A stretch of 32,697 bases of DNA from an uncultured Clostridia bacterium (lineage in GTDB: Bacteria > Bacillota > Clostridia > UBA1381). The position numbers and the translations under genes were made by a program. Below, piece by piece: positions 6,834 through 27,648 of the stretch (position 1 is its first letter; the number at the start of each line of letters is the position of its first letter). The DNA lies in NCBI GenBank assembly GCA_944391635.1, contig CALXUL010000145.1, positions 1 through 32,697 of the forward strand, written 5' to 3'. The notes under the pieces are model-generated. The model did no database searches and had not been told where the DNA came from. It saw nothing but the letters and a program-made list of their open reading frames with translations.

Positions 6834-9140
6834 TCAATCTTTGTATTTATTTTTATCTCTATATTTCCCCGGCGGCATTCCAGTATATTTTGAAAAAATT
6901 CTTGTAAAAGTTCTCAAATTTGAATATCCAATATTTTCCGCAATAACTTCTACCGACCAATCTGTTGTTTTAAGGAGTTCCTTTGCTTTATTTACTCGTG
7001 TTTCATTAATATACTCAAGCATGCCTTGATTTGTTGTTTTCTTAAACACGCTTGAAAGATAACTCTGATTCATATAAAAATGCTTTGCAATTGCCGCTAC
7101 ATTTAGTGACGTATCATCATAATATGAGTTTATATATGTTTTAACTTCATTTACTATCTCAGAAATATGAGTACTTTGTTTATATGCGCTTTTACTGCAT
7201 ATATCCCTTAGAATGTCCAAAATCTCACTTCTCATTTTTCTTACAGTAGTACAATCTTCAATACGTTTAATAATGCGATCCTGCTCTATAATGTCGTTTT
7301 CAAACACATTATTTCGCACCTTCATAATTGCACATATTATATCATACATAAGACATTTTGCTTTTTGTATTGAAATTTTGTTTTGTTCAAGATTAATGTT
7401 TAAAATCTCATCAAGAATTATTTGTGTTGTTTCAAAATCACCGCTTCTCAAACAATCTATCATATTTATTTCTTTTTCTATCGGAAAATAATACAATTTT
7501 TCATTATCACTAACAGTATTGTCATAAACTATAACGCTGCCCGGTTCGACAAAACCTTGCTCAATGCACTGCATTGCCTCCTGATAAGATAACATCAGTG
7601 AATTAAGTCCTTTATGTACCAAAGACATTCCCGATATAAATTCAATATTAAAATTCTTGCTTATAATCTCTTCTGCCTTTTTGATACTATTGTATGCTTC
7701 TGTCTGTTCTTCCGTACCCATATTAAGTATACAACACAGCATACCTCCTATATCACAGAACAAACAATTATATTGATATGGCATAATTTCTTCAATAATA
7801 TTAGCTACAATAAGTTTTGCCAAATCATAATTTTCTGAGTTGTCTTCTTGGTTTGCCTCAAAAAATATTTCACTTAAATCCTCAAAGTAAAAAACCGCTA
7901 CAGCAAAATATTGATGTTTAAATACTATTCCAAGATTTTCCAGAGATTCTTCTGCCTCAAAATCAGAGCTTGCATTTGAATTAGTCATAAGTTTTAAAAA
8001 TATAGCATCCCGCAGTATCAAATCCTGTATTTCCCTTTTTGATTCAAGCCCGTTCTTTTTCTTAATTATCTGGGTAATCCATTCATTAATGTAATTAAAT
8101 TCATCGGTATTCTCATCTTGAGAAAGCTGCATGTCTTCGTTCTTTTCAAGTCTGTTTATCAGTTGTCTTATAGGTTTATGCTGATGTTTTACAAAAGCAT
8201 AAATCATCCCGCTTCCTACAAAAAGCCATAGCAGCATCATTCCTCCGGTTTGGACGCGCATAGTGTTAATTACAGACGTATATTGCTTATTATTTATCGA
8301 ATAAATATATACCCAGTTATTCTGATCAGATTTTACAGAAAGCATCACATTGTTATTGACATAGTTAAGCTCAACATTACTGCCTGTCTCCAAATATTTA
8401 TTTAGCATTTTATCAATTGCACCCGCTTGAGAATTACCGAAAATAAACTTCTGCTGGTCTTTATCAAAAATAAGGAATGTTTTTTTATTGCCGCTTTCAT
8501 CACTAAAATTAGTCCATTGATCTGTTTTTATCTCTATAACTACAGTTGCAAGAGGAGTGCTATAATCTTCTCCAAAAACCGAAACGAAATAAAACAATTC
8601 ACTCTGACCTGGTATCTGTTCAATATTAGGAATAATTACATATTTCCCATAGCTTTTCTGTTTTAACAGATATATATACTCATCATACGAAATTGCCTTA
8701 TCAGAATAATAGGTATTATAATATCTTTCACTTCGGGTGTTAGTCTTTCCTCCAGCAATGTAATCTGTATTATGAAAATAAATATACATATTATCAATTT
8801 CCACGTCAGAATAATGCCACGATTCTATTTTGGCACAAACATCAAGTAAATTATACTTATATTGTTCATTCGCTTCTGTACGCAGAATCATATCCTGAAC
8901 AAAAGGATCATATGCAATCTGACTGGCTAAATTATTCACAACAATTTGAAAATCGTCAATATATATTTTTCTATTTTGAAGCAATTCAATATTTATTTTG
9001 TCAATTTGTTCAAGCATATTATCTTCAATTTTAATATATGTATAAAAGTTAAAAACAGCAGTTACAAATAATATAATAATATACGATACTGCCCATGAAA
9101 CCACTACTTTGTTTTGTCTGAATATGTTTTTCAAAAGCAA
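6834..9140 (-). CDS. Membrane-spanning sensor fused to an AraC/XylS-family HTH regulator
   Basis: 768 aa. An N-terminal TM (VVSWAVSYIIILFVTAVFNFYTYI), a ~270-aa extracytoplasmic region and a second TM (GGMMLLWLFVGSGMIYAFV) precede the C-terminal AraC HTH (LNVAAIAKHFYMNQSYLSSVFKK...VIAENIGYSNLRTFTRIFSKYTGMPPGKYR). The TTG start at 9140 abuts the GH105 stop at 9141, preceded by GAGGAG. Confidence 0.85.
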   Translation of the reverse strand: MLLKNIFRQNKVVVSWAVSYIIILFVTAVFNFYTYIKIEDNMLEQIDKINIELLQNRKIYIDDFQIVVNNLASQIAYDPFVQDMILRTEANEQYKYNLLDVCAKIESWHYSDVEIDNMYIYFHNTDYIAGGKTNTRSERYYNTYYSDKAISYDEYIYLLKQKSYGKYVIIPNIEQIPGQSELFYFVSVFGEDYSTPLATVVIEIKTDQWTNFSDESGNKKTFLIFDKDQQKFIFGNSQAGAIDKMLNKYLETGSNVELNYVNNNVMLSVKSDQNNWVYIYSINNKQYTSVINTMRVQTGGMMLLWLFVGSGMIYAFVKHQHKPIRQLINRLEKNEDMQLSQDENTDEFNYINEWITQIIKKKNGLESKREIQDLILRDAIFLKLMTNSNASSDFEAEESLENLGIVFKHQYFAVAVFYFEDLSEIFFEANQEDNSENYDLAKLIVANIIEEIMPYQYNCLFCDIGGMLCCILNMGTEEQTEAYNSIKKAEEIISKNFNIEFISGMSLVHKGLNSLMLSYQEAMQCIEQGFVEPGSVIVYDNTVSDNEKLYYFPIEKEINMIDCLRSGDFETTQIILDEILNINLEQNKISIQKAKCLMYDIICAIMKVRNNVFENDIIEQDRIIKRIEDCTTVRKMRSEILDILRDICSKSAYKQSTHISEIVNEVKTYINSYYDDTSLNVAAIAKHFYMNQSYLSSVFKKTTNQGMLEYINETRVNKAKELLKTTDWSVEVIAENIGYSNLRTFTRIFSKYTGMPPGKYRDKNKYKD

Positions 9141-10229
9141 CTACTCCTCAGTCTCGATTAACAACTTCTCCATTTCACAGCACATCATAACAAACGCTCC
9201 AACGCCATGTAAATCATTAATCCCCCTTGGTCTTGATATGTAATGGTCATAATTACCCACTCCGGTTCCCGCGCATATAGAGGGCATATATACTCGGTTA
9301 TTCTCAAGATATAAAGATTTTATGATACCATCATATCCACATATCGCATAATCCGCATAATTTTTGCCAAGATATCCTCTGCGAACGGCTTTTGCAATAG
9401 AATAGGTAAAAAGCGCAGAGCAGGAAGTTTCGGTCCAATTCCCGCATACGCTGCCCTTGTCAACAACCTGGTACCAAAGCCCGTTTTCTAAGTTCTGGTA
9501 TTTTACAACCGATTCCAAAAGACCGGTAAGATAGCCGCAAACCGCTTTATAACCATAATAATCTTTTGGAAAGAAATCAAGCATATCCACAAGACTTAAG
9601 GCAACCCAGCCTATTGCCCTGCCCCAAAATTCTTCTGACAGCCCGGTTTCCTTATCTGCCCACTCTGCTTTGCGGGAACAATCCCACGCATGGTATAGAA
9701 GTCCGGTTTTTTCGTCCCTCATATTCTCAAACATAATCTTAATCTGACGATATATAAGGTCGAACAGGTCGTGCCTGCCGTACCTTGCCGCATATGGAGC
9801 AAGCAGTGAACCTGCCATATAAAGACCGTCAAGCCACATCTGGTTGGGCTTATTATGCATATGCCAAAATCCCCCTTGGGGCGTAAAATCCCAGCGTTCC
9901 AAATAACCTATAAAATTATCAAGAACTTTTTTGTAATGGGCCGTCCCCGTTTTGTCATATAACATAAAAAGAAGCCTTGCAGCCTGAAGGTCATCCAGCT
10001 TATCGCGGTAATGGAAGCGAATGCTGCCATCCTCTATTATGTTACTGTCAATCCATTCCTTTATATAATTATAATACTTTTCATCCCCCGTTTCAAGGTA
10101 AACTTTTTCCATACCGCTTAAAAAAACACCCTGGATATAATGGAATCTCCCTTTTTGCGGCAAATCCGGCGCGTCATATTCATTCATGACAGTGTCGCAC
10201 ATCATCATTGCATATTCCAAAGCCTTCAT
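9141..10229 (-). CDS. GH105 unsaturated rhamnogalacturonyl/glucuronyl hydrolase (YteR/YesR-like, Glyco_hydro_88 superfamily)
   Basis: YteR-like layout with FHYIQGVFLSGMEKVY, MWLDGLYMAG, LLYHAWD and WGRAIGWV. I set the start at ATG 10229, with GGGAGG 9 nt upstream. The ORF-track first codon is a TTG at 10232. Confidence 0.8.
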   Translation of the reverse strand: MKALEYAMMMCDTVMNEYDAPDLPQKGRFHYIQGVFLSGMEKVYLETGDEKYYNYIKEWIDSNIIEDGSIRFHYRDKLDDLQAARLLFMLYDKTGTAHYKKVLDNFIGYLERWDFTPQGGFWHMHNKPNQMWLDGLYMAGSLLAPYAARYGRHDLFDLIYRQIKIMFENMRDEKTGLLYHAWDCSRKAEWADKETGLSEEFWGRAIGWVALSLVDMLDFFPKDYYGYKAVCGYLTGLLESVVKYQNLENGLWYQVVDKGSVCGNWTETSCSALFTYSIAKAVRRGYLGKNYADYAICGYDGIIKSLYLENNRVYMPSICAGTGVGNYDHYISRPRGINDLHGVGAFVMMCCEMEKLLIETEE

Positions 10230-10251
10230 CAAATGAATCCTCCCTTATTTT

Positions 10252-10289
10252 AAATCCGGCAGCAGAAAAGCTCCTGCTGCCGGATTTTT
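10252..10289. terminator. 14-bp GC-rich hairpin between the esterase and GH105 genes (internal terminator or attenuator)
   Basis: AAATCCGGCAGCAG (10252..10265) pairs with CTGCTGCCGGATTT (10274..10287). A T-run follows on the plus strand; only a partial TTT follows on the minus strand. Confidence 0.45.
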
Positions 10290-10292
10290 ATA

Positions 10293-13244: not shown

Positions 13245-13265
13245 TTCTTGCCCTCCTCTTTTCTT

Positions 13266-14549: not shown

Positions 14550-14553
14550 GCTC

Positions 14554-17500
14554 TTACACCCCTTTCCGCTTTAACAACAGCATCTCAGTAATATTTCCGT
14601 TTACATTTGCCGGGTTACCGTTATTCACAAATTTAATATATCTTGCGTTATACATTTTATCAAGCTTATATACTTCATAGTCTTCGCTTGTACCGCTTGT
14701 TGTTATATCTGCAATCTTTTCATAATCCACACCATTTTCTGAACCGTACAAAGTATATTTATACTTACGTTCAGAACCTAACCAGAATGCCGTTGAAACA
14801 GCATCGAACTCAATTGACTCTCCAAAATCAAAAATTCCTTCAGCTCCAATTGTTTTACACGTCCATCTTGTGGACAGGTCTCCATCAATTGCATTTTGAC
14901 CGTTATTTGCAGCCTCCGGCTCTTCACTTACGGTAATGGCTTTCGCTCTGTATTGGTCATAGAAATCCAATATAGCGCTTGACGTAGCGCTGTATACTAT
15001 CCGGCTCTTCTGAACCTTTGTGCCGTCGGCGCTTATAACCTCGATTGAAACTTCCCCGTTTACTTCGGCATCGTCTGCTACTATCACCACTTTCTTATTA
15101 CTGTCATTCGGCACGACTCTAAATTCTGGGATAATATCCTCATCAACTACCGGTATAGTCGAGGAATCTTTCATCTTTACATCATCTACATACAGCTGAT
15201 ATCCAAAATCATCTTTCACGTTGCTATGCGTGCCACCCGGTACCTTCCAGGAACTTATTGGCTCATTAGGGATGTTATCAGTCTCCCAAGGCGACATACG
15301 TACGGTAAGCGTTACATTTCCGCTGTCTTTCAATCTAATTGCGACCTTGCTTATACCTTCATTCCCACCCTGTCCCTCTACAACAGGTGAACTTGGGAGC
15401 GGCTCAGCTTTCATAGTGCTCAGCTCAAATTCAGCCGCATCAGTTTCCATCTGCAAAATCAGACTCTTGCCGTTTTTAGACAATAACGCCGTTTTTGTAT
15501 CAAGTATTTCAATATTTGCCTTAGTATGCATAAACCAATATATTTCACTTTCCCTGTTTAACTCTATTTCATCACGTACTGTAAGGGAAGTATAGTCATC
15601 ACCGATATAGAATCCCCTTATAACAGAGTCCGCATCCTCATATAGTTCCGAAAGGTCATATACCGCATATCCCCCGGTTTCGCTTGACGCACTGTCTATT
15701 AATTCCGCAAACGTATTCTCTTTTTGAGAAAATCCGTCGTCATTATTTATTGTAAGTGTATTATGCCCTTCGGTCCGTTTGCGATAAATTTCACTGTCAC
15801 TGACTCCTAAATTATAGTTATCACGTCCAAGGTCAGTTGCCCATCTCACGCCCATCATGTCAAAAGCAAATGCGCCGCCATCGTTATGGGAATGATAATG
15901 CGTTGTCTGCCCCCCTTGCGCGGCAAAAACAAAGGCTTGAGGGTTAGTGTAATCTTCATGTACTGTAACCGATTCCGCGCCCTTTGCTACTATCATGCGC
16001 GGTATGTTTTGCGTATCTTCAGCAGTTACACCGGCTGTATAGAACAATGCATCAATGGGGTGTGCCTCAGGCTCATAAATGCCATAACTGGTATAGTCAC
16101 CCGACAGATTCATCTGCCGAATATATGCTAATCCCTTCTGATTAAAATATTTTGATAAGAATGACTGAGAAAAATATGAAAATATCCCTTCATCAATATT
16201 GGTATCGCCGTTGGCAATACTGCCGAGAGGCGATGCCCAGCCGGCTGCAAAATATCCTGTTTTGTCAAGTCCCTGATACTTCATAATACCATAATCAGTG
16301 CCAAGCGCGCAGTCAAGGCTGCTTATTATTTTTGCAAGGTTGTTCATACATACGTCCCAGTATTGGTTCCCTTCAGGCCATTGCCCGTCCGGTGCAAAGC
16401 CGTAAAGGTTATATTCTATGCTTCTTAGCGACTGCTGTAATAAATCGCCGCACAAATCGGGGTAAATGTCCATATAGGCAATTGCCGCGAGCACCAGTCC
16501 TCCGTTTACCCACAAATTATAGTTGCTTTTCCATTTTGCAAAAATTGACGAAACATTAGTTGAAACTGTAGACAAATTCGATGAAGAGCCTGGCAGTCCG
16601 GCGTAAAATACCCTATCCATAATAGACAGGCTAAGGCGGTACGCCGTATCCTCCATCAGTTTTTTCTGCTCATCGGTCAGTCCGCTGTAAAACCAATCAT
16701 AACCTATTGCAAGCCCTGCGCTATAGGATCCTGCATCAATAGGGTGGTTCTCGTTTATGTCGGGGTATTTGCTTATTCCTTCTATCTCAAGCCATGCCCT
16801 GTCAAGATATTTCTTATCACCGGTAATCTGATATGCAAAACCAAGATACATCATACGTTCTTCAAAATTCATCGCATACCCATTTTGCCGGAAAGCATCT
16901 TGAAAAGTATACGTAGTGCATATTTCCTGTGGTATAATATCCTCAGCCTGCTGTATCAAAAGCTCAACAATCCAAGCTAGCCCCTCATCGGAAAGCGCTT
17001 CTGTTTGTATTCGTTCAAAATCCTCTTTTGTCGCAAGCAGCCTCGGGTGTACCGAGCCGCCTGTAGTCGCATTAAACTTTTCAAGCAGCACATCTTTTTT
17101 CGGCCGCTCAAAAAACAAGAATGCATTTAACATCTGAATCGTTGACTGATACGTAAAATAGCCGTTTCTGTAAGTTTGCTTATAGTATGGTATTTCCGCC
17201 CCAACGTCAAAATACATCGGCGAATCCGAAACAATTACCATACCATACCCGTCGTCCAGGGTATATTTGCCCAGCACTTCCCGCGCAAACTTCCCAATCG
17301 GTATCATTGGGCTACAAAGCGAAAGGAAAATGCCGCCAAATTCTGTTTCTTGTCCATTTACAAAAAGCGTTTCACCCTTTTCATCTACGCTGCATTCAAT
17401 ACCAAAAGCATTACTTATATCCTCTGCTGATAAATAAAGTTCAGAATCCTGATAAACCGAATTATGTACTAAATCTGTCTTTTGACCATTTTTATACATA

Positions 17501-18906
17501 ATACCTGAAAAATGATGGAAGCTTATTTTATCCTCCAAATATTCTTCTATCGGAGTGTCATCAGGAAAAATACTTGTTTTTTCGTACGTACCGTTTGAAG
17601 GCGGATTTACAATCCCGGTTACCTCAAAGTTTTTAAGCTTTATTACCCCCGGCGCAGAATTACCCGAAACCGAGAACCTAACCATATTCAATGTCTGCAT
17701 TTTTTCTTCAAGCGGTACGTTTAGCGCCGCCGCTTCACCGTTTATGTATATATCTGCCATATGGGTTTCAAGATTTACAAAAAGCTCATATCTAAACCAC
17801 TGTCCGGGAATCACTGCATTTGTAATTGTTTTCCCATCTTCGGTAACTATACTGCTCCCTTTTATATTTGCCGGGATTGAATTTATTTGCGATGAAGAGG
17901 TTTTTGTGTCTCTAAGAAGAAAAACCTGTGCCTGCATATCAGGGTCTTCGCACATTATATCCGATGCAATATAGAAGTAGGAATATGTCCTGCTGCTGTC
18001 ATAGTTTTTCATTTTATTAAGAGTTATATCTACATAGCAGTCATCAGATGTGGTTTTTGTGAATATGATTGATTCGCCTTTATTTATATTTTTATAATCC
18101 AGCCTCTCGCACTCAATAGAGTTTGTCTTTGGATATGTTTTTAAATTATAGTATGCCATTGCCTGGCTGTACATAGCATGGCTGTGGAAATATGTAAAAT
18201 CCCCTGCATCCTGCTCGACATATATATCATCGGTAACGTCCGTGCTGTACCTTTCGTTCGGCAAAGAGAAATTAACATCAGTTCCGTTATACACAACAAT
18301 ATCGTCTATATATACACCGCCTGATAACGATGATTTATAAATATGCATGCTGTCAAAATCCCCGGAAAGCCCGCTTACACGCCAGCCCTCAAGCTTCAAC
18401 TTCTTATCTACATACACTGAACAAACCTCTGCACGCCTGTTAACCATAACCGTCAGCTCTGTAAAAGATGTGCCGCCGATATTGCCTATCCTCTTACCCT
18501 GGCTTGTTTCAATCTGATTTGAATTGACATACAATATCGGCACAAATGTGCTCCCGCTTGCCATACCTATCTTCATATTGACTAAATCCGAGTTTTCCGG
18601 CTTAAATTTTACCGAAAAAACAAATTCGTTTTCAACATCACCGTCTAATGCTTTTGATATCGTTATAACGGATTGTGTTTTTTCAGACAGAAGCGCTTTG
18701 TTTTGCATTCCTGCCTCACTTATTTTTGCAGTACCGCCGTCTATATTTACACTATCAATTTCTACAGTATTGGTTATACTGCCGTCAAATCTTTCAAGAG
18801 CCAGAAATTCCTGTACCCTGCCCGGTTCTGCAAAAACATACAAGCCGGACATAAAAGATAAAATTAGGACTATTGCTATAATACTATAAGTTCTCCTGTA
18901 CAACAC
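14554..18906 (-). CDS. Secreted 1450-aa polysaccharide lyase candidate: two LamG-like modules, a copper-amine-oxidase-N-like stalk, a heparinase II/III-fold catalytic region, a beta-sandwich, and an F5/8 type C (discoidin) CBM
   Basis: Signal/TM is YSIIAIVLILSFMSGLYVFA. The lyase region (aa ~615-1205, nt ~15292..17064) carries HPRLLATKEDFERI, DAGSYSAGLAIGYDWFY, SNYNLWVNGG, HYHSHNDGGAFAFDMMGVRWATDLG and TEGHNTLTIN. The C-terminal NAIDGDLSTRWTC (nt ~14566..14934) is discoidin-like. AAGGAGGG precedes the GTG at 18906. Confidence 0.75.
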   Translation of the reverse strand: MLYRRTYSIIAIVLILSFMSGLYVFAEPGRVQEFLALERFDGSITNTVEIDSVNIDGGTAKISEAGMQNKALLSEKTQSVITISKALDGDVENEFVFSVKFKPENSDLVNMKIGMASGSTFVPILYVNSNQIETSQGKRIGNIGGTSFTELTVMVNRRAEVCSVYVDKKLKLEGWRVSGLSGDFDSMHIYKSSLSGGVYIDDIVVYNGTDVNFSLPNERYSTDVTDDIYVEQDAGDFTYFHSHAMYSQAMAYYNLKTYPKTNSIECERLDYKNINKGESIIFTKTTSDDCYVDITLNKMKNYDSSRTYSYFYIASDIMCEDPDMQAQVFLLRDTKTSSSQINSIPANIKGSSIVTEDGKTITNAVIPGQWFRYELFVNLETHMADIYINGEAAALNVPLEEKMQTLNMVRFSVSGNSAPGVIKLKNFEVTGIVNPPSNGTYEKTSIFPDDTPIEEYLEDKISFHHFSGIMYKNGQKTDLVHNSVYQDSELYLSAEDISNAFGIECSVDEKGETLFVNGQETEFGGIFLSLCSPMIPIGKFAREVLGKYTLDDGYGMVIVSDSPMYFDVGAEIPYYKQTYRNGYFTYQSTIQMLNAFLFFERPKKDVLLEKFNATTGGSVHPRLLATKEDFERIQTEALSDEGLAWIVELLIQQAEDIIPQEICTTYTFQDAFRQNGYAMNFEERMMYLGFAYQITGDKKYLDRAWLEIEGISKYPDINENHPIDAGSYSAGLAIGYDWFYSGLTDEQKKLMEDTAYRLSLSIMDRVFYAGLPGSSSNLSTVSTNVSSIFAKWKSNYNLWVNGGLVLAAIAYMDIYPDLCGDLLQQSLRSIEYNLYGFAPDGQWPEGNQYWDVCMNNLAKIISSLDCALGTDYGIMKYQGLDKTGYFAAGWASPLGSIANGDTNIDEGIFSYFSQSFLSKYFNQKGLAYIRQMNLSGDYTSYGIYEPEAHPIDALFYTAGVTAEDTQNIPRMIVAKGAESVTVHEDYTNPQAFVFAAQGGQTTHYHSHNDGGAFAFDMMGVRWATDLGRDNYNLGVSDSEIYRKRTEGHNTLTINNDDGFSQKENTFAELIDSASSETGGYAVYDLSELYEDADSVIRGFYIGDDYTSLTVRDEIELNRESEIYWFMHTKANIEILDTKTALLSKNGKSLILQMETDAAEFELSTMKAEPLPSSPVVEGQGGNEGISKVAIRLKDSGNVTLTVRMSPWETDNIPNEPISSWKVPGGTHSNVKDDFGYQLYVDDVKMKDSSTIPVVDEDIIPEFRVVPNDSNKKVVIVADDAEVNGEVSIEVISADGTKVQKSRIVYSATSSAILDFYDQYRAKAITVSEEPEAANNGQNAIDGDLSTRWTCKTIGAEGIFDFGESIEFDAVSTAFWLGSERKYKYTLYGSENGVDYEKIADITTSGTSEDYEVYKLDKMYNARYIKFVNNGNPANVNGNITEMLLLKRKGV

Positions 18907-18933
18907 TATAAGCCCTCCTTTTATAAAATAACT

Positions 18934-21900
18934 TTACTCGTAAACAAATAAACTTTCCGGGGTAAATCTTGACTGCCGCAACACAACAAAACTACAGTCA
19001 TCGCCATATGCGGAATATGTCTTTATCTCATCAAGCAGAATAGGAGTTACCTCGCCTGTATCGATATCGTATTTGACGATATTACTTGTATTTACGCTAA
19101 CATTCTTAAGGCTATTAAATGTGTAATCATAATCCCCAAAAATATCTGTTTCGGTTGACATATATGCAAACTTATCCGAAATTTTAAACATATTTCCAAG
19201 CTGATATACAATATTTTCATTCTTTCCGTTAAACACTGCATCAAGCGATGTATTCCCGATGCCTCTGCCGTTTTCCAAGTATACGTCTACACAAATAGAC
19301 ATAATTGTGCTCCCGTCATTTTTCAGCTTTGCGCGGAAAATATCCCCGCCTGAGAGTTCTTCGCCGTTATCCTTTGATACCTCAACGTTGTATGGGAGAT
19401 AAAGGTCATAATAATTGCCGTCCGACCAGCATACAACCTTTCTTGTAGCTTCGCCCTCATTATTTATCTCTTCAACCACCTTCTCTACAATATAGCTTTT
19501 ATCCTTCCAGTTGGGCTTATCTGTAGATGGATCAAATTCCAACACAGCTACCGCCGGCGTACCTGCCTCATTTAAGTCATAGACCGCAAGGTTGTAGGAG
19601 GTATTATCTATCAGCACACTGCTGCTTTCACCTACAACAGAATATTCCGCATCTGCCGGATCTGTCGGCACTTTAAATATCATGGTACCCGCAAGGTTAA
19701 AATATGGCATACATGAATTAGAAGCGGAACGGTACAAAAAAGTATCGGCGTCAAACCTATATTTTGTCAGCTTATCGTTCTCAGGCTGGTATTCAAACAT
19801 TCTCAAATCACTGCACTCTTCTGGAAAATCTATTTTTTTTATTTCATTGTTTTCATCCACGCAGTAACGAACCATCTGCTTTTCCGTACCTGCACAACTT
19901 GTCAGATACTCCCTAAACTCTGCCCGGTCCATGCTCTCGCCGTCTGCAACTACCTTTTCAGCAACATTCAGCGTAACTGTATTCGCGCTTATATCTATAA
20001 GCTTTATACCTATTTCCTCCTCTGTTTCTTCCAAAAAGCATCTTAGCATATATCCATAATAAAATTCTTCGCCTATAACCTTTACATTTATAATTTTTCC
20101 GGTAGAACCGACAACCGCAGTAACCATATTCCCCGGAGACATCATAAGCCACTCATCTTGGGGCAACGCACTCGCAACCAGATACTCCTGACCGTCAATG
20201 CAGGCAATATTTTCGGCAGAATCAGTATACAAAACCGTACCTTTTACGCTTTCTGTGCAAATACGCATACTAATTAGCATCATGTCCTCAGATTCGCATA
20301 CTTCTACTACGTCGCCTTTTTTTATATCGTACGGAGTAAGCTTTTCATTTAAGCTGTTTGTTATATTAAAAATAACGTCTTCAGACATAATATCTATATA
20401 ACGGCTTGAATCTGACAAGCCTATTGTTATCCCAGTCGGGCTTACGCTTTCAACCTCCGCATAGCGGTAATCATTGATAAAAATAATCTCATATTTGCCA
20501 TCATCATCATTGTCCAACACACGGATCGTACCATCTGCATTCTTAAAATACTCCTCATATAGCCCCACTGCCCGTCCGTTGTATATTAAAACTGCATCCG
20601 GCTCAATACGGAGGCGTTTTTTCCTCTGCAAAACGTTATCAGTATACTGTATTTCTGTTGCATCAAAGCTGTTAAAATACATTGCGTCAAATTCAATTTC
20701 CGCATTTCCGTTTGGGATAATCAGGACTGCTTCCTTCTGGTAGTTGTCATCACTGTAAAATACCGTACATTTTTTCCCTAATATATCTGGCGTCTGCTCG
20801 CTGCAATAAAATCTGTCACCGTTAATCTCTATTATATCTTCACCATTTATATATGCTGTACTGTCAAGAGAAGCTGTCTGCGTACGGTTCACAATCCCAG
20901 TAGTACTGTAAATCCCGTACAGCATCTGGAGCCAGGTTTCATCCGAGTCAAGATTATATCCGTTAAGTGGGGTTGTGCAGTAGGTATTTACGGCATTGTA
21001 CATCAGCATAACGGCAGAATCCCAGGAAAGCTCACCATAAATATTATTAATCTCAGCACCCTCATCAATTTCATATTTTTGCGCCGTTTTTATGTATGCT
21101 TCAGGATACTCACCACCGTAATAATTTTCTGCCTGGAAATCATATGATGCAGCGCATACAATGATTTTAACTGCTTCAGCAGTTGTTATATTCTGATATG
21201 GGCTGAAGGTTTCACCTTCGCTGATCCATCCGTTTGCAAGGGCGGTATAAACCGCCTCGGCACCGTCTGTCTGTGCTGTTACATCTTCAAACGTATATTC
21301 ATAGTCGCCGCCTTTATATACTTTGAAAAGCTGGCAGACTTCTTTTATAAACTCTATTTTTGTAACCCCGTTCCCGGAAGGCTCCGGCAAAGCGCCTATA
21401 TATTCAAGCAGCTTCTGAGCATAATAGAGCATTCCCGCAGCTTTGTTAGGTTGCCGGCTTATTTGCGGCTCAACAAGACCCAATTCTATTACTGTATCAA
21501 AAAGTGCCGCCGCTTCTGCGCGGGTTATATTTCTTTTCGGATAAAATGCACCGTTATCCCCGTTTAATATGCCAGCGGCAGACATTGCATTAACGGCATC
21601 TGCTGCATAATCAGAAATATCCTGGCTGTCGGAGAAGCTTATTTCATCAGATGTTTCTTTAAGCGTGTTTTTGAGCACGCGGTATAAAATCGAAGCCGCA
21701 TCCTCACGCGAAATAGGTCTTTTCGGCTCAAATTCTTTTTCGGTTACACCCTTTACCCAGCCGTTGCCGGCGGCTATCGATACAGGGATATAGTACCAGT
21801 CATTTACATCTATATCATTAAATGCTTCCTGCACTCCGCTTCCCATCCCGAAAAGGCGCACAATCATTACGGTAAATTCAGCCCTTGTAATAGTAGCTTC

Positions 21901-23094
21901 AGGCAAAAAGGTATTATCGGCATACCCTGAAATCACGCCCAAACGATACAGTTCATTTATAGCTTCTTCTGCCCAATGTCCAGAAATGTCAATAAAACTG
22001 CTCTGCGGCTGCGTCGGCAACACATCTCCGGGCGTTGTCTGAAAGGCATCATCATTGTCGCCTGCAGCCCCAATTGATGACGGTTTCCCCCCGCCTTCCT
22101 CAAGATTTTTCTCTTGTTCCATAACAGCGCTTTGGAAAGCTTTCGCTATGTCTTTTGTACATGTCCATCCGCCGGTGGACACCATCATTAAATTAAATAC
22201 ATTGTTTTGATAATAGCTGTTGCCCAGCCCGTTATACTTTTCCATATCAAGACCATATAATGACGGGTCGATCATCAATATCTCTTTTAGAGCCGCACTA
22301 TTTCCCGCGCAAGCTGCCTTTGCAGTAAGAATAGTATCATTCAGCACTGCAAAAGTGCTGCCATCTCCGATTTCCGCTTCCGCTATCAGCTCATCAGCTT
22401 TAGCTTTTTCCTCGTCTGAAAGGTCATTATATCTGGTTAAATCAATATCCTGCTCCAAAAAATTTTCATAAAGCTGCAGCGCTATACTAAACGCCATATC
22501 GTCTTGCTTAATGAGACTAACTGCCTCGCCCTGCATACGTAAATTCAAAAAAGTTTCTGCATCAGGTTCTTCTGACAGATTGGAATATACATAATGTGCT
22601 ATATCATTGCCATATGTATTAAATATTTCATCAGTATTGTCAAAACAATCATTATTATCTTTCAGAAGATTGTATATGCCTGCCTCATCAAGGTCTATGG
22701 CGCTGCCTGCAAGCTCTGAGAGTTTATTCTTATCAGCATTTACTATAATTTTCTGTAAGGAGCCGTCCCCGCTTGATGCGTGAACAATATATCTTCCATT
22801 AGCAAATCTCTTTGGTATAACAATGTTCCCGCTGAAAACGCCGTCATTGTTTATATCGTCTGTCTTGAGCACAACATCATTCTGCCATATTGAATCTGCT
22901 CCGCTTTCCTCAAAGTCGGAAGGATATATCCTTATATTCAAATATCCTTTTTCTTTTCCAGTTTCATACCTATAAGAAAACAATTTACTATCTACATCAA
23001 AAGTGCCGCTAAAGCTATCTCCGGCATACACGGTTGATACGCAAAAAACTGTTACGAAAACAATGCTGCATATACTTTTAAATATACTTTTCAT
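18934..23094 (-). CDS. 1386-aa cell-wall-anchored protein with an internal triple SLH module; flanking domains of unknown function
   Basis: Signal peptide ends at VYA|GD. Three SLH repeats lie at aa 366-537 (FIDISGHWAEEAINELYRLGVISGY...ITRAEFTVMIVRLF; FNDIDVNDWYY...ISREDAASILYRVL; FSDSQDISDYAADAVNAMSAAGILNG...ITRAEAAALFDTVI). A possible degenerate fourth sits near aa 593-640. GAGGAAAGG precedes the ATG. Confidence 0.8.
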   Translation of the reverse strand: MKSIFKSICSIVFVTVFCVSTVYAGDSFSGTFDVDSKLFSYRYETGKEKGYLNIRIYPSDFEESGADSIWQNDVVLKTDDINNDGVFSGNIVIPKRFANGRYIVHASSGDGSLQKIIVNADKNKLSELAGSAIDLDEAGIYNLLKDNNDCFDNTDEIFNTYGNDIAHYVYSNLSEEPDAETFLNLRMQGEAVSLIKQDDMAFSIALQLYENFLEQDIDLTRYNDLSDEEKAKADELIAEAEIGDGSTFAVLNDTILTAKAACAGNSAALKEILMIDPSLYGLDMEKYNGLGNSYYQNNVFNLMMVSTGGWTCTKDIAKAFQSAVMEQEKNLEEGGGKPSSIGAAGDNDDAFQTTPGDVLPTQPQSSFIDISGHWAEEAINELYRLGVISGYADNTFLPEATITRAEFTVMIVRLFGMGSGVQEAFNDIDVNDWYYIPVSIAAGNGWVKGVTEKEFEPKRPISREDAASILYRVLKNTLKETSDEISFSDSQDISDYAADAVNAMSAAGILNGDNGAFYPKRNITRAEAAALFDTVIELGLVEPQISRQPNKAAGMLYYAQKLLEYIGALPEPSGNGVTKIEFIKEVCQLFKVYKGGDYEYTFEDVTAQTDGAEAVYTALANGWISEGETFSPYQNITTAEAVKIIVCAASYDFQAENYYGGEYPEAYIKTAQKYEIDEGAEINNIYGELSWDSAVMLMYNAVNTYCTTPLNGYNLDSDETWLQMLYGIYSTTGIVNRTQTASLDSTAYINGEDIIEINGDRFYCSEQTPDILGKKCTVFYSDDNYQKEAVLIIPNGNAEIEFDAMYFNSFDATEIQYTDNVLQRKKRLRIEPDAVLIYNGRAVGLYEEYFKNADGTIRVLDNDDDGKYEIIFINDYRYAEVESVSPTGITIGLSDSSRYIDIMSEDVIFNITNSLNEKLTPYDIKKGDVVEVCESEDMMLISMRICTESVKGTVLYTDSAENIACIDGQEYLVASALPQDEWLMMSPGNMVTAVVGSTGKIINVKVIGEEFYYGYMLRCFLEETEEEIGIKLIDISANTVTLNVAEKVVADGESMDRAEFREYLTSCAGTEKQMVRYCVDENNEIKKIDFPEECSDLRMFEYQPENDKLTKYRFDADTFLYRSASNSCMPYFNLAGTMIFKVPTDPADAEYSVVGESSSVLIDNTSYNLAVYDLNEAGTPAVAVLEFDPSTDKPNWKDKSYIVEKVVEEINNEGEATRKVVCWSDGNYYDLYLPYNVEVSKDNGEELSGGDIFRAKLKNDGSTIMSICVDVYLENGRGIGNTSLDAVFNGKNENIVYQLGNMFKISDKFAYMSTETDIFGDYDYTFNSLKNVSVNTSNIVKYDIDTGEVTPILLDEIKTYSAYGDDCSFVVLRQSRFTPESLFVYE
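21484..21999 (-). repeat. Three tandem S-layer-homology (SLH) repeats within the 1386-aa protein
   Basis: See the sequences quoted for 18934..23094. The block follows a G/P/S/Q-rich linker (EEGGGKPSSIGAAGDNDDAFQTTPGDVLPTQPQSS). Confidence 0.8.
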
Positions 23095-23112
23095 ATATGT
23101 AACCTTTCCTCT

Positions 23113-24003: not shown

Positions 24004-24017
24004 CGCTTCTCACCTCT

Positions 24018-24962: not shown

Positions 24963-24993
24963 TTTCCAACCCTTTATAAATAACTATACCAAT

Positions 24994-26562
24994 TTATTTT
25001 GAAAGATATCTTGAATATGCATCCTGCTTCATTTCCAGAACTCGTTCAACGCCGCGCGCCTTAAGCTGCTCCACAACGCTGTCATAATTCTCCAATGGCT
25101 CTATACCCATTATGAATTTAATTATCATTTCATCAGCATATGTATCAATAGCGTTATTCAAATTAGCAAGCTCGCTTACTTCATCTTCCTGAACATACAA
25201 ATAAGGGAGTACATGTTCTTTCATATTGGTCTTTTTCCATGTATCCCATGCGGCTTGTTGCTCAGGAAGACTTGCATACTGTTCAAGATAGCGTCTGTCC
25301 TGAATAAATGGACCCGAATCATACGCAAGCGTATATTCCGACAATGCAACCGTCATTGCAAGACCTTCTTCATTGTTTGTTATATTTTCTGTATACTTGG
25401 GGTATCCGTTCTCAAGAGTATAGCTCTGTGACTCTATGCCGAAATTATACAGCATGCATCCTTCCTCACTGTACCCGAAATCAAGCAGCTCTATTGCCTT
25501 TTCTTTATTTTTGCAGTCGATGCTTACCGCTGCGGCATTGCCTGCGGCAACAGGCGGCTGCCAATATCCAAATTCCGGCGTTGTGCCTTTTTCCATTGTT
25601 GGGAAAGGCGCTCCGGTAAGCTTAAACGAATCAGTTTCAGCCGAACTCATATACCTGCCTATTCCCGAACCAAGTGCCCCCGAAATTACACCGGACATAC
25701 CGTTTAATATATTTGAATCAATCATAGTATTGTCCAGAGCGCTAAAATCAGGATCGAGCAACCCCTCATTATACCACTTGTTCATCAGTGTAAGGAAATC
25801 TTTAAATCCCGGCTCGAGCATCCCGTATTTTACCTTTCCATCGTCAATATAATATCCCATGCCAACTCCATATGCGCCACAGAAAAGATGACTTGCCCTT
25901 ATATTAGATAAACTGATTGACAACGGTGCCTGCGCTCCTTTCTTATCCTTAAACGCCCTTAGAACCGTTTCCCATTCATCTATTGTTTCCGGCATTTCCA
26001 AACCAAGCTCTTCAAGCCAGTCCTGGCGAATTATCAGCCCTACGGTAACCTCCAAATCCTCATCGCCTCTTATGCAAGGGAACGCAAACAAAGCTCCCGA
26101 ATCGGTTATGGACATTTTCCTTACATCGTCGTGCTCTGCAAAATACTTGTTAATATTAGGCGCATAATCCTTATATTGGTTTATATCAACAATAACCTTG
26201 TCGTTTATAGCCTTTTGAGGGCCTCCGGGATAATTCTGCCAATTATACTGAATTATATCCGGCAAGTCGTCGGATGTGACTAAAATGTTGAATTTTTCTG
26301 TTGCCTGACCCTGGGGAGGATGAATAAATTCAATATCAGTATTTGTCAATTCCATAACCTTTTGGTACAGCGGCGTTTCTGCCATATTATTGACCACTGT
26401 TGACGCATAGCTTGTCAAATTAGACCAATATGTAAGATGAACCTTCCCATCTTCAGTCTGATTTGTTTGTACTTCGCCGCATCCGTATAACGCAGCTGCC
26501 AATAAAATAAAACTTGCCGCAATAGAATATTTCTTTTTCATCATCAAATCAAATCCTTTCAT
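24994..26562 (-). CDS. Extracellular solute-binding lipoprotein of the ABC transporter (LplA-like, family 1 SBP, ~520 aa)
   Basis: Signal peptide with the lipobox LAAALYG|C. Size and composition fit the large Firmicutes oligosaccharide SBPs. Alternative starts at 26544 and 26541 (MMKKKYS) are equally plausible. Confidence 0.85.
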   Translation of the reverse strand: MKGFDLMMKKKYSIAASFILLAAALYGCGEVQTNQTEDGKVHLTYWSNLTSYASTVVNNMAETPLYQKVMELTNTDIEFIHPPQGQATEKFNILVTSDDLPDIIQYNWQNYPGGPQKAINDKVIVDINQYKDYAPNINKYFAEHDDVRKMSITDSGALFAFPCIRGDEDLEVTVGLIIRQDWLEELGLEMPETIDEWETVLRAFKDKKGAQAPLSISLSNIRASHLFCGAYGVGMGYYIDDGKVKYGMLEPGFKDFLTLMNKWYNEGLLDPDFSALDNTMIDSNILNGMSGVISGALGSGIGRYMSSAETDSFKLTGAPFPTMEKGTTPEFGYWQPPVAAGNAAAVSIDCKNKEKAIELLDFGYSEEGCMLYNFGIESQSYTLENGYPKYTENITNNEEGLAMTVALSEYTLAYDSGPFIQDRRYLEQYASLPEQQAAWDTWKKTNMKEHVLPYLYVQEDEVSELANLNNAIDTYADEMIIKFIMGIEPLENYDSVVEQLKARGVERVLEMKQDAYSRYLSK

Positions 26563-26637
26563 AATATATTCCCCTTCAAAAAAAGATTTTCCCGGGTTCG
26601 ATTACTACGTTTATAGCTTACCACTTTTTATATTCCC

Positions 26638-26658
26638 TGCAAAAGGACATTCCTTTTG
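26638..26658. promoter_or_regulatory. Perfect 9-bp palindrome between the GH43-like stop and the transporter operon promoter region
   Basis: GCAAAAGGA-cat-TCCTTTTGC. No clear U-tract follows on the minus strand, so it could be a weak terminator or an operator. Confidence 0.3.
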
Positions 26659-26680
26659 CTTTAACGGACAAATTTTTGTT

Positions 26681-27571
26681 TTATAAAATGTGCACACCAA
26701 TATCATCAATTATTACCTCAGCCCTGGTTATTCTCCATTCCCGGTTTTTATCTGCACCCTGATAGAATAAATATAATCTTCCGTCAGTGTCTTCATAAAT
26801 ATACGGATGCCCCGATTCAAGATAATTCCAGGATTTTTTAGGTCCGTTAGCAATCAACGGCTTATTGCTTAACCTTTTAAAATTTATGCCATCCTCTGAT
26901 ACTGCACAACCTATTTGTTGAGGCGAACAGTTATATGCACCGCCATAAAACATATATACCTTATTATTTTTGGCTATTGCCGCCGGCGCTTCTATGCAGT
27001 CTTGCTCCCAGTCAAGCTCCGGCTTTAGTATTGCGCCGGCTTTTGCCTCTTGCCAACAATCCTTTGAATATGCGCTTCCTATTTCAGCAAATGCTGCTCC
27101 GAGCATTTGCTTTTTAAAAGACTTGTCACGCGTAGCAATGTATAAATAAAGTCTGTCTTTAAAAACCACCACATCTGCGTCTATTGCACGCCCGCAACAC
27201 CACTCTCCAGATGGTCTATATATTGGGTTTGTCTTGTCTCTTTTAAAATTAATACCATCACAGGAAGTTGCATGGCAGATTGCATCGTGTTGCTTATTGC
27301 CATAAGTTTGATAAAACAAATGCACTATATTATCAAGGACAATTGCTCCTGCTGCGCATATTCCATTTTTTTCAACCTCCCCCTCTGGCGCAATATATGA
27401 AACTATTTCCCATACTTCCATATCCTTTGATTTTGCAATACCTATTCCGTAACCAATCATTCCTTCATTAACAGGAGGGACTGTATAATATAAAATATAA
27501 TCGTCTTTGATTTTAATTACGGCAGGGTCCTTTGCAAAACTTTTTCCCCTGGAATTATCTGTAAAAAGCAT
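26681..27571 (-). CDS. GH43-like five-bladed beta-propeller glycoside hydrolase (intracellular, no signal peptide)
   Basis: FAKDPAVIKIKDDYILYYT resembles the GH43 catalytic-base blade (DP-x-[VI]-x(3)-D-x-YY). CIEAPAAIAKNNKVYMFYGG resembles the catalytic-acid blade (EGP-like). Repeated x-x-[LV]-[YH]-L-[FY]-Y blade ends are present. AAGGATGG precedes the ATG at 27571. Confidence 0.65.
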   Translation of the reverse strand: MLFTDNSRGKSFAKDPAVIKIKDDYILYYTVPPVNEGMIGYGIGIAKSKDMEVWEIVSYIAPEGEVEKNGICAAGAIVLDNIVHLFYQTYGNKQHDAICHATSCDGINFKRDKTNPIYRPSGEWCCGRAIDADVVVFKDRLYLYIATRDKSFKKQMLGAAFAEIGSAYSKDCWQEAKAGAILKPELDWEQDCIEAPAAIAKNNKVYMFYGGAYNCSPQQIGCAVSEDGINFKRLSNKPLIANGPKKSWNYLESGHPYIYEDTDGRLYLFYQGADKNREWRITRAEVIIDDIGVHIL

Positions 27572-27648
27572 TCTGCACCATCCTTATATAGTAATTTTAA
27601 TTAATTATATAATCATGCGTCACACAAGGTCAACTTTACTGATAGTTT

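Follow-up and report, generated by a model that had tools for sequence, protein, structure and literature searches.

A conserved gene string in gut Clostridia that encodes a predicted PL35-like lyase and a surface-layer homology array protein, a probable utilisation locus for an acidic glycan

Organisation of the locus

Contig CALXUL010000145.1 of an uncultured Clostridia bacterium (assembly GCA_944391635.1, lineage UBA1381) was analysed over its full length of 32,697 nucleotides, which is referred to here as the window. A string of ten co-directional open reading frames (ORFs) is found on the minus strand at 6834-27571, where their order and lengths agree with those given in a preliminary description of the same DNA. 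The string encodes a large surface-layer homology (SLH) protein, a multidomain lyase related to family PL35, an esterase, a sugar importer, two glycosidase-type enzymes and a regulator, and from these domain assignments we consider it very likely to be a catabolic operon, that is, a Gram-positive polysaccharide-utilisation locus (PUL) for an acidic glycan.

The first gene of the conserved string encodes a GH43-like protein of 296 amino acids (aa) at 26681-27571 (Pfam Glyco_hydro_43, 4.5e-16). This gene is followed by those for an ABC solute-binding lipoprotein (SBP; 522 aa, 24994-26562), which matches Pfam SBP_bac_1 and has the lipobox LYGC at aa 25-28, and for two ABC permeases of 314 aa (24018-24962; Pfam BPD_transp_1) and 296 aa (23113-24003), both of which are classed as sugar permeases by NCBIfam. 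The next four genes encode secreted proteins in which signal peptides were recognised by inspection: an SLH wall-anchor protein of 1386 aa (18934-23094; Pfam SLH, 1.1e-36), a multidomain lyase of 1450 aa (14554-18906; Pfam Hepar_II_III_C, 1.8e-12, DUF4962/DSE-like_N and F5/8 type C), a non-catalytic protein of 427 aa (13266-14549) and a SASA/CE20-type esterase of 983 aa (10293-13244). The string closes with a GH105 enzyme of 363 aa (9141-10232; Pfam GH88/105 model, 2e-102) and a membrane AraC-type regulator of 768 aa (6834-9140; Pfam HTH_18, 2.9e-19, and HTH_AraC). The region of the AraC gene at 7001-9000 has a G+C content of 30-32%, compared with 38-46% in the rest of the operon and 47-49% in the right flank.

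The intergenic gaps from the GH43-like gene to the AraC gene measure successively 118, 31, 14, 18, 27, 4, 21, 60 and 0 nt. The spacing of 0-30 nt reported earlier is therefore correct for most of the string, but not for the 118 nt that follow the GH43-like gene or the 60 nt that hold a stem-loop. The GH43-like gene had been placed just upstream of the locus. It is indeed present there but rather belongs to the operon, as it is kept with the other genes in L001, L002, L007 and L088 (contigs and loci outside the window are numbered with L and homologous proteins with P). A candidate operon promoter, which was assigned by consensus match only (11 of 12 positions), is located on the minus strand at 27604..27633, about 33 nt upstream of the GH43-like start, and consists of TTGACC and TATAAT separated by 18 nt. 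Rfam found only two tRNAs in the window and no riboswitch or leader.

The stem-loop at 10252-10287, to which no strand is assigned, lies in the 60 nt that separate the esterase gene from the GH105 gene. It has a G+C-rich stem of 14 bp, and the 76-nt stretch that holds it folds with -28 kcal/mol, in agreement with the hairpin marked previously. A canonical intrinsic terminator of the operon strand was considered and ruled out, since the stem-loop is not followed by a U-tract on the transcribed (minus) strand; the hairpin would instead be a processing, stabilising or attenuating element. G+C-rich hairpins of unrelated sequence were observed at the same esterase/GH105 position in L001, L002 and L007, and none in L006.

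A regulator, an SBP, two permeases and carbohydrate-active enzymes (CAZymes) encoded in one direction are all the parts expected of a Gram-positive PUL with an ABC importer except the ATPase. An ABC ATPase gene is absent from the window in Pfam scans; Firmicutes sugar importers commonly use a shared ATPase that is encoded elsewhere. No sulfatase, PL8, GH5 or GH38 was found by Pfam in any scanned ORF of at least 100 aa in the window, as had been claimed, and no protein of the string has a Pfam match to cohesin or dockerin. The gene string is not a chance pattern, because it includes ORFs of 1,386 and 1,450 codons, its E-values reach 1e-102 and its order is kept in independent assemblies.

The PL35-like lyase

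The 1450-aa protein carries a complete PL35-like lyase module which is predicted to be active. The module spans aa 618-1206 (15289..17055, minus strand) and consists of a toroid and a beta-sheet domain. In sequence searches of the PDB it matched the PL35 structures 8khw (4.1e-49, chain residues 16-591), 8khv (1.9e-43) and 9o3q (3.1e-40), while the next lyase family, PL15, was reached with 3a0o at 6.5e-3 only. The identity to GAGase VII is 30.7% over 554 positions. Asn795, Tyr849 and His1005 of the window lyase are the counterparts of Asn187, Tyr241 and His397 in GAGase VII, where the alignment keeps a constant numbering offset of 14, and the Mn2+ ligands His403, Asp405, Asp421 and His457 (GAGase II numbering) correspond to His1007, Asp1009, Asp1025 and His1048. 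Our seven-sequence family alignment (A1) shows that six of the seven catalytic and Mn2+ residues are invariant, including the Asn, Tyr and His. In the PL35 glycosaminoglycan (GAG) lyases known as GAGases, alanine at the Asn, Tyr or His abolishes activity, and alanine at each Mn2+ ligand abolishes or substantially reduces it (PMC12088678). The presence of a catalytic His/Tyr constellation, on which the preliminary description had made its lyase assignment depend, is thus borne out by the Asn/Tyr/His triplet together with all four Mn2+ ligands, and every PL35 sequence feature that we checked (similarity over the full-length module, catalytic triplet and Mn2+ site) was found in this protein. At 31% identity, the lyase could be either a deep branch of PL35 or a member of a sister family. 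By manual reading of the alignment, one of the three GAG-binding arginines proposed for GAGase II is kept.

The N-terminal half of the module matches DUF4962, which is DSE-like_N (PF16332), and a uronate C5-epimerase resembling dermatan-sulfate epimerase, or a catalytically dead binding module, therefore has to be considered. Human DS-epimerase 1 is reported to be remarkably similar to bacterial proteins (PMC8006597), which also speaks for an epimerase. All residues of the beta-elimination reaction are conserved across the family, however, and the adjacent GH105 or GH88 enzyme of such loci needs an unsaturated product for which no other lyase is present. An epimerase or a dead module is thus extremely unlikely.

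The N-terminal 617 aa of the protein (17056..18906, minus strand) contain the signal peptide, two probable LamG-like jelly rolls and a stalk segment. The 592 aa of this region that were queried gave no PDB sequence match, and Laminin_G_3 was matched faintly and only in the homologue P0005. Conservation of aa 216-617 nearly equals that of the catalytic module, with 60-69% in orthologues and 33-40% in paralogues, and because of this the region is likely to be functionally important. The stalk at aa 459-515 (17362-17532) resembles Cu-amine-oxidase N1 domains (Cu_amine_oxidN1, E=0.003-0.009, below the Pfam threshold) and could, speculatively, be a docking element. The same segment recurs in enzymes beside the SLH platform described below, namely the homologues P0006 and P0007 and a beta-helix protein of L089 (17946-19861). 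At the C-terminus, a CBM32 module (F5/8 type C) is found at aa 1320-1444 (14575..14949, minus strand; Pfam F5_F8_type_C, 8.5e-12), and its nearest PDB relatives are the CBM32s of alginate lyases (5zu6, 7w12, AlyQ) and YeCBM32. No wall-anchoring domain was recognised in the lyase. A search of the assembly index gave no exact copy of the window lyase sequence.

The SLH protein and its array region

The 1386-aa protein was found to be a fusion of an SLH protein of about 550 aa with an SLH/beta-barrel-array protein of about 870 aa, where each half has an SLH triplet of its own. The SLH and array genes are separate, and adjacent or overlapping, in L001 (5727-9988), L002 (4822-9058), L007-L009, L011-L014, L028 and others. 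The fused form is nevertheless real, because it is also seen in L087, which is an independent assembly of the same locus, and in P0010 and P0011 (L088).

The first SLH triplet (aa 365-532; 21499..22002, minus strand) is matched by Pfam SLH at 1.1e-36 in three stretches and by the Sap SLH structure in the PDB at 1e-11. Upstream of it, aa 1-360 have no match in Pfam. The second and divergent triplet, at about aa 550-725 (20920..21447, minus strand), was recognised by three observations: the family profile A2 matches the SLH domains of Sap and SpaA at 3e-13, 15 of the 25 array-family members match Pfam SLH in this region, and an AlphaFold2 (AF2) model aligns with SpaA-SLH in Foldseek with a target TM-score of 0.68-0.72 and a probability of 1.00. 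Both triplets are predicted to bind the secondary cell-wall polymer.

The remainder of the protein, aa 726-1386 (18937..20919, minus strand), is an all-beta region of about 660 aa, which we tentatively describe as tandem small beta-barrels. The AF2 model of aa 726-1090 has a pLDDT of 85 and a pTM of 0.71; its best Foldseek matches are tandem arrays of the cold-shock/OB type (Unr CSD789, EF-P and the OB domains of Mpa), with probabilities of 0.97-1.0 and TM-scores of 0.16-0.35. The AF2 models were built from 16-sequence alignments. A likeness of the 845-aa array model to the DDB1 propeller was rejected as an artefact of repetitive beta structure (TM-score of about 0.10, root-mean-square deviation of about 25 Å). 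No catalytic fold was evident in aa 726-1386 by AF2 and Foldseek, and no Pfam model matched this region of the array family. A profile search for this family was dominated by generic SLH proteins; in the full HMMER scan at E<=1e-3 the region is found in 1,119 clusters (50% identity), most of which are stand-alone proteins of 850-900 aa, and 633 clusters reach E<=1e-10. The word-indexed homologue searches were shallow (8 lyase and 4 array matches), and family sizes are taken from the genome-contig and full HMMER scans.

Since the largest protein of the locus consists for the most part of two SLH triplets and a long non-catalytic array, the system might have a non-nutritional role in which the cell remodels or recycles its own envelope polymer or exopolysaccharide (EPS), or adheres, and the giant proteins are mainly structural components associated with the S-layer. 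P0020, a protein weakly related to the array family whose match extends over about 19% of the query, was observed in a housekeeping context (L092) and would fit such a role. The tight linkage to a sugar ABC importer, to the cytoplasmic-type GH105 and GH43-like enzymes and to an AraC sensor is a catabolic signature, however, and the string contains no biosynthetic glycosyltransferase or export gene. We therefore regard a non-nutritional role as very improbable and retain the catabolic interpretation.

The esterase and the 427-aa protein

The catalytic part of the esterase is a CE20-type SGNH module at aa 537-983 (10296-11636). It matched the PDB structures 9h4u (Fl8CE20_II, 1.1e-76), 9ega (2.6e-70) and 7kmm (XacXaeA, 3.2e-67). 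The nucleophile block GQSNM is found at aa 627-631. At aa 853-857 the sequence DNIHP can be read as either NxH or DxxH against the Asp/Asn-x-His of CE20 block V. The CE20 matches come in two stretches, of which one aligns query 537-730 with residues 23-215 of the 9h4u chain and the other query 748-979 with residues 412-642 of the 9ega chain. Because about 200 chain residues are skipped in this way and replaced by about 18, the beta-sandwich ancillary domain of CE20 is absent from the window esterase. In the solved enzymes this domain helps to form a water-mediated triad. The characterised CE20 enzymes act only as de-O-acetylases, and one CE20 cluster occurs in pectin-type neighbourhoods (PMC12313940).

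The N-terminus of the esterase contains tandem LamG-like repeats at aa 26-220 and 221-415, which are 50% identical and represent a recent tandem duplication, followed by beta-sandwich and Ig modules. The length of the orthologous CE20 esterase was observed to vary, with 983 aa in the window, 982 aa in L006 and about 1,417-1,419 aa in L001 (15663-19922), L002 (14756-19009) and L007 (15642-19898). The extra N-terminal sequence of the longer forms has no clear match to the window esterase except for one LamG-like stretch.

The 427-aa protein probably consists of LamG-like, Ig-like and beta-sandwich modules. It has a weak Pfam match to Sialidase-like_CBM and no PDB sequence match. In paralogous loci, a module of the 427-aa type forms the C-terminus of the SASA esterase or of another large protein directly after the lyase, and C-terminal regions homologous to the 427-aa protein carry matches to Laminin_G_3 and Big_5. 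No anchor of its own was recognised in the lyase, the 427-aa protein or the esterase. A common N-terminal docking module in these three proteins was considered, but clear homology was found only between the two repeats of the esterase; the other pairs gave E=0.001-0.1 in a tiny search space and were not counted.

The preliminary description had estimated that roughly 2,500-3,000 aa of secreted protein have no assignable function. By our count about 2,900 aa are without a Pfam match above threshold (about 1,216 in the SLH protein, about 717 in the lyase, 427 in the 427-aa protein and about 540 in the esterase), but most of this sequence can now be classified as non-catalytic. The same applies to the giant surface proteins around which the locus was said to be built. 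They are indeed large and secreted, although they consist mostly of non-catalytic modules, and the 1386-aa protein owes its size to a gene fusion.

Cytoplasmic enzymes, importer and regulator

The GH105 protein is closest in the PDB to YteR (1nc5, 7.5e-94, 42% identity), followed by CA_C0359 (4wu0, 3e-65), while the ulvan-type structure 4ce7 was matched at 4e-7 only. GH88 structures are not among its PDB matches, and the match to the GH88 Pfam model reflects the shared clan. The motif WLDGLYM is conserved at aa 133-139 and includes the catalytic Asp, which corresponds to Asp143 in YteR. YteR acts on the unsaturated rhamnogalacturonan (RG) disaccharide. Furthermore, GH105 enzymes of Paenibacillus that are named YteR are active on unsaturated oligogalacturonides (PMC7267202).

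The GH43-like protein scores 59.5 bits in Pfam against a cut-off of 32.2, overlaps with GH32N and GH130, and has weak similarity to GH130 and GH43 structures in the PDB. It is probably a distant five-bladed beta-propeller glycosidase of the GH43/32/130 type with plausible catalytic motifs. By their positions, KDPAV (aa 14-18), IDADV (aa 130-134) and CIEAP (aa 192-196) are candidates for the motifs that hold the GH43 Asp/Asp/Glu residues. By inspection neither the GH105 nor the GH43-like protein has a signal peptide, and both are therefore presumably cytoplasmic.

The nearest solved relatives of the SBP are Smon0123 (5xs8 and 5gub, 1e-42), which binds unsaturated GAG disaccharides, and AlgQ1/AlgQ2 (about 1e-37), which bind alginate. 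The SBP thus probably binds acidic, and possibly unsaturated, oligosaccharides. In the AraC-type regulator, the hydrophobic segments at aa 14-36 and 299-317 flank an extracytoplasmic region of about 260 aa, which is followed by a GGDEF_2-like linker and the C-terminal HTH. Its start codon abuts the stop codon of the GH105 gene.

Conservation and recurrence

The complete order from the GH43-like to the AraC gene is kept in at least five other assemblies (L001, L002, L007, L006+L088 and L087). Across the conserved order, protein identities are 45-84% in the Logan, ENA and GTDB contigs L001, L002, L007 and L006+L088; as examples, the GH43-like proteins are 63-74% identical, the permeases 72-84% and the AraC regulator, which is the least conserved gene of the string, 45-59%. 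L087 is an independent ENA assembly with the same genes at identical lengths. The nearest named genome is an uncultured Ructibacterium metagenome-assembled genome (MAG; L007), in which the lyase is 61% identical, and NCBI taxonomy places Ructibacterium in the Oscillospiraceae of the Clostridia. Judged by similarity of the locus, the source of the window is most likely a gut bacterium akin to this genus. Related genomes were recovered from the guts of roe deer, goat, sheep, rabbit and Hadza humans, and from the chicken-derived R. gallinarum.

In the genome-contig scan, 574 relatives of the lyase were found, and about 17 of the 80 best match from the N-terminal modules to CBM32. Relatives of the lyase in Paenibacillus share the catalytic module and CBM32 only. 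Co-occurrence was counted in one scan, over its 80 best loci, and in four additional neighbourhoods. In about 24 loci of gut Clostridia, the array protein is part of the lyase locus and mostly immediately upstream of the lyase, and the genes usually run from SBP and permeases through SLH protein, array protein and lyase to the 427-type protein. The SLH protein, the array protein, the full-length lyase and the 427-aa-type module therefore form a recurrent core. One Ructibacterium MAG has three full-length lyase loci (L007, L011 and L028), and a paralogous locus (L014) is found in the cultured relative Ructibacterium gallinarum DSM 107454. The view of the locus as an uncharacterised set stands, but it is not a one-off, since it represents a recurrent and paralogously expanded system of gut Clostridia. 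Literature searches found no equivalent gene set among characterised PULs, as had been supposed, and no published description of the gene set, the array family or the multidomain lyase.

The accessory genes were observed to vary and include SASA esterases, CE4+GDSL fusions, a GDSL enzyme, a CE15-like esterase, LamG proteins and GH105 or GH88. Paralogous loci likewise encode a SASA esterase next after the lyase, and behind it lie additional genes of the CE4, GDSL and CE15-like kinds. For example, L011 (1401-5638) has a GDSL protein of 1020 aa besides a CE15-like glucuronoyl esterase, and L014 of R. gallinarum (18468-21974) and L028 (17051-20629) each have a CE4+GDSL fusion of about 1,170-1,190 aa.

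The pair of SLH and array genes also occurs without a lyase. In L090 (761-14870) it precedes two genes of family GH28, genes of galacturonate catabolism of the UxaB-like and UxaA-like types and one for a CE4 enzyme, in L089 (3722-19861) it accompanies a 1117-aa GDSL esterase, a 1512-aa protein of unknown family and a protein with Beta_helix and Cu_amine_oxidN1 matches, and in L091 (3375-12999) it adjoins large proteins of unknown family. The pair thus behaves as a general surface module beside large secreted enzymes, of which the identifiable ones are of the pectin class.

Flanking regions

A genuine GH88 gene is located at 1685-2875 (plus strand), about 4 kb beyond the AraC end of the string, where the preliminary description had placed it. 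Its product matches the Bacillus unsaturated glucuronyl hydrolase (UGL) structure 1vd5 at 8e-58, while the Pfam GH88 model stays below threshold. The gene is not conserved with the locus, however, and it was rejected as a part of it, as no GH88 is found within 10 kb of the orthologous loci. GH88 homologues accompany other loci of the lyase family (L057, L083 and Paenibacillus), which are not orthologues of the window locus.

GH88 and the locus are separated by a restriction-modification pair together with genes for a Crp regulator and a ferredoxin. The pair is located at 3010-4941 (plus strand), where a 305-aa ORF with no Pfam match is followed by a Dam-type N6-adenine DNA methyltransferase (PF02086, 3.6e-49), and the two are probably a type II system; they stand between two glycan loci and beside the Crp/Fnr regulator and the ferredoxin gene. 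The second glycan locus, at 1-1545 (minus strand) and divergent from GH88, is an apparent remnant of a paralogous transporter locus. The permease encoded there at 592-1545 is intact and has its closest counterparts in L066 and L011, and a permease-2-like ORF runs in frame after about 145 aa into a GH105-like fragment (GH105 aa 166-215, E=3e-5) and then off the window. The arrangement may have arisen when a sister locus lost its surface genes by deletion, or it could be a chimera of the assembly.

On the other side, beyond the promoter-like site, the locus is bounded by the divergent genes for tRNA-Trp (28216-28291, minus strand) and tRNA-Glu (28475-28549, plus strand). A perfect 12 of 12 sigma-70 consensus is found upstream of tRNA-Trp at 28338-28310. 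Several terminator-like hairpins were observed at 27980-28549, of which a 35-nt one at 27980-28014 lies between the tRNAs and the operon and scores as a terminator for either strand. Pfam gave no match for the small ORFs at 28043-28979.

Proposed mechanism

The central proposal of the preliminary description, in which an O-acetylated, uronic-acid-containing glycan of neither the heparin nor the xanthan type is degraded at the cell surface and its oligosaccharides are imported, agreed with every analysis made here. In its general course, the mechanism set out below is very likely. The 1386-aa protein would build a wall-bound platform, where the two SLH triplets hold it on the secondary cell-wall polymer and the array of about 660 aa projects outward. 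The CE20 esterase, the lyase and the 427-aa binding-type protein would work at or near this platform; gene adjacency only suggests that these anchor-less proteins associate with it. LamG-like modules and CBM32 may target the polymer. The esterase would strip O-acetyl groups before, or in aid of, beta-elimination, and the lyase would break the backbone at its 4-linked uronic acids through a His/Tyr beta-elimination in which Asn795 neutralises the carboxylate and Mn2+ occupies a structural site. As GH105 needs a lyase product and this is the only lyase of the locus, it is presumed to be the source of the GH105 substrate.

Oligosaccharides capped with 4,5-unsaturated uronate would then be captured by the SBP and imported through the two permeases, with the ATPase encoded elsewhere. 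In the cytoplasm, the YteR-type GH105 would split off the unsaturated uronate, and the GH43-like enzyme would trim a neutral residue that is perhaps a pentose or a galactose stub. The AraC protein with its two transmembrane segments may sense an extracellular product and activate the operon, and the hairpin before GH105 probably sets differing transcript levels for the surface genes and the GH105-regulator pair.

The substrate

We tentatively favour, with somewhat less than even confidence, an O-acetylated pectic galacturonan as the substrate, where the rhamnogalacturonan I (RG-I) type is more likely than homogalacturonan. Pectin is preferred because the GH105 falls in the YteR clade, with 42% identity to YteR itself, and because acetylesterase, lyase and GH105 with no rhamnosidase or methylesterase correspond to the minimal RG-I backbone logic of the Bacillus subtilis yes/yte system. 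In addition, the SLH and array pair has genes for GH28 enzymes and galacturonate catabolism as neighbours in L090, and for a GDSL esterase and a beta-helix protein in L089. The CBM32 of the lyase resembles uronate-binding CBM32s, and the related genomes have herbivores, chickens or Hadza humans as hosts, all of which led us to the same preference. The lyase substrate probably differs from the GAGs that contain glucuronic acid (GlcA), as argued from the GH105, the acetylesterase, the GH43-like enzyme and the lack of GH88 in the operon. Taken as a whole, the mechanism and this pectic substrate together are an explanation that we consider about evenly balanced between right and wrong.

Several observations weigh against this explanation. 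Every characterised PL35 enzyme acts on GlcA-containing GAGs and none on polymers of galacturonic acid (GalA), although one acts weakly on alginate. Among solved structures, those nearest to the SBP bind oligosaccharides of GAGs or alginate and not of pectin, a GH88 gene is located at a distance of 4 kb, and in some related lyase loci GH88 takes the place of GH105. The beta-barrel fold of the array is tentative, being drawn from low-TM Foldseek matches, and the lyase, the esterase and the 427-aa protein are linked to the platform by adjacency, with no anchoring or docking domain identified in them. The esterase set is not specific for pectin, as CE20, CE4, GDSL, CE15 and GH43 are also typical of xylan loci (PMC12313940).

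Some of these observations would be accommodated if the same mechanism served a non-pectic acetylated acidic glycan, such as a capsule or EPS of gut microbes, a plant gum or mucilage, a glucuronan, or a gellan- or ulvan-like polymer. The preference of known PL35 enzymes for GlcA and the kinship of the SBP with GAG and alginate binders fit such a polymer, and the retention of one of the three GAG-binding arginines of GAGase II would fit a new specificity of whatever kind. Several lyase loci per genome with differing accessory enzymes (CE4+GDSL, CE15-like, GH88 or GH105) further suggest tuning to many related polymers, as in capsules and EPS. The YteR-clade GH105 enzymes that have been tested act on unsaturated GalA termini, however, in L090 the SLH platform has genes for GH28 and galacturonate catabolism beside it, and the locus offers no glycosidase but the single GH43-like one for the neutral sugars of hetero-EPS repeat units. 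A non-pectic glycan is a possibility to be taken seriously and nearly as likely as a pectic one, although we would not call it probable.

Among characterised lyases, GAGases and a PL35 chondroitinase come nearest, and the closest relative of the SBP, Smon0123, serves the import of unsaturated GAG disaccharides. Together with the genuine GH88 gene 4 kb away, these similarities raise the alternative of a host GAG locus for hyaluronan, unsulfated chondroitin or heparosan, like the characterised PL35 systems. The uronyl hydrolase of the operon itself is a YteR-type GH105 and not a GH88, however, and the orthologous loci are without GH88. As GAGs to our knowledge carry no O-acetyl esters, the conserved CE20/SASA esterase would have no role, and the GH43-like enzyme likewise has none in GAG breakdown. 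Pfam scans of the window gave no sulfatase, hexosaminidase or amino-sugar catabolism gene, and the lyase is only 31% identical to the GAGases. A host GAG locus is thus improbable, and the pectic galacturonan is kept as the favoured substrate.

A broader proposal can be formulated in which the SLH and array pair is an undescribed and widespread platform of gut Clostridia that docks anchor-less giant CAZymes with no need of cohesin and dockerin, and in which the PL35-like lyases cleave acetylated pectic galacturonans, an activity that is not known from any member of the heparinase II/III-like superfamily. The enzymes concerned may be PL35-like lyases, esterases, and GH28 or beta-helix enzymes, and the stalk or the 427-aa-type modules may be the docking elements. 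As a joint claim this is unlikely to be right in both of its parts.

Comparison with known systems and significance

The PL35 GAG lyases, namely GAGase II and VII (8KHV/8KHW) and BcPL35 of Bacteroides caccae PUL25 (9O3Q), have the same DSE-like_N toroid and Hepar_II_III_C beta-sheet as the window lyase and the same Asn/Tyr/His and four Mn2+ ligands, and they are likewise paired with an unsaturated uronyl hydrolase in a utilisation locus. The solved chains are single modules of about 600 aa, whereas the window lyase, at about 31% identity, has 1450 aa with about 617 aa of N-terminal modules and a CBM32. The hosts of the known enzymes are Bacteroidota or other Gram-negatives (Spirosoma, Bacteroides, Victivallis), in contrast to the Gram-positive host considered here with its SLH platform and ABC import, and no Gram-negative-type PUL components were seen in the locus. 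The partners also differ: GH88, GH109 or GH154 occur in the known systems, and GH105, an acetylesterase and a GH43-like enzyme in the window, where the substrate is probably not a GAG.

The RG-I system of B. subtilis comprises the PL11 lyases YesW/YesX, the acetylesterases YesT/YesY, the GH105 enzymes YesR/YteR, the importer YesOPQ and the membrane AraC regulator YesS. It has the same roles as those proposed for the window locus, namely extracellular deacetylation and beta-elimination, ABC import, a cytoplasmic GH105 and a membrane AraC regulator. It uses a PL11 beta-propeller and CE12, however, in place of the PL35-like toroid and CE20, and the window locus adds giant multimodular enzymes, the SLH platform and the GH43-like gene. 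Pfam scans of the string found no RG lyase of families PL11, PL4, PL9 or PL26 and no CE12. The locus may thus work like both the B. subtilis RG-I system and the Bacteroides PL35 PULs while being a member of neither.

Individual components have relatives in other systems as well. The SBP belongs to the same clade as those of Streptobacillus moniliformis Smon0121-0123, which occurs with UGL, and of Sphingomonas AlgQ1/AlgQ2, although the organisms, lyases and downstream hydrolases differ. The esterase shares the SGNH core, the flanking beta-sandwiches and GQSNM with the CE20 enzymes XacXaeA (7KMM) and Fl8CE20_II (9H4U), but it is without their insert of about 200 aa and has about 540 aa of N-terminal LamG-like and Ig modules in addition. 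Clostridia are known to hold CAZymes on the wall through SLH domains, as in the anchoring scaffoldins of cellulosomes and the SLH-bearing pectinases of Monoglobus pectinilyticus, and here too SLH triplets would keep a polysaccharide-degrading machinery on a Gram-positive wall. Unlike in those systems, Pfam found no cohesin or dockerin in the proteins of the string, the anchor bears an array of putative small beta-barrels and the enzymes themselves are without SLH.

The mechanisms of gut glycan foraging are known mostly from the PULs of Bacteroidota, with few models from Firmicutes. The two elements of most interest in the present locus are the substrate specificity of the PL35-like clade and the role of the widespread SLH beta-barrel-array platform. 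The cultured R. gallinarum DSM 107454, with its paralogous locus, makes experiments on both feasible. If the proposed reading is true, PL35-like lyases would gain a new substrate class and a modular context, and a pectic substrate in particular would be a specificity not yet reported for them. The SLH beta-barrel-array family, which is without a Pfam model, would likewise gain a function, and the use of acetylated acidic fibres would be linked to specific gut taxa. For the poorly studied Clostridia related to Ructibacterium, the locus provides a conserved blueprint that combines a platform, a giant lyase, esterases and an ABC importer.

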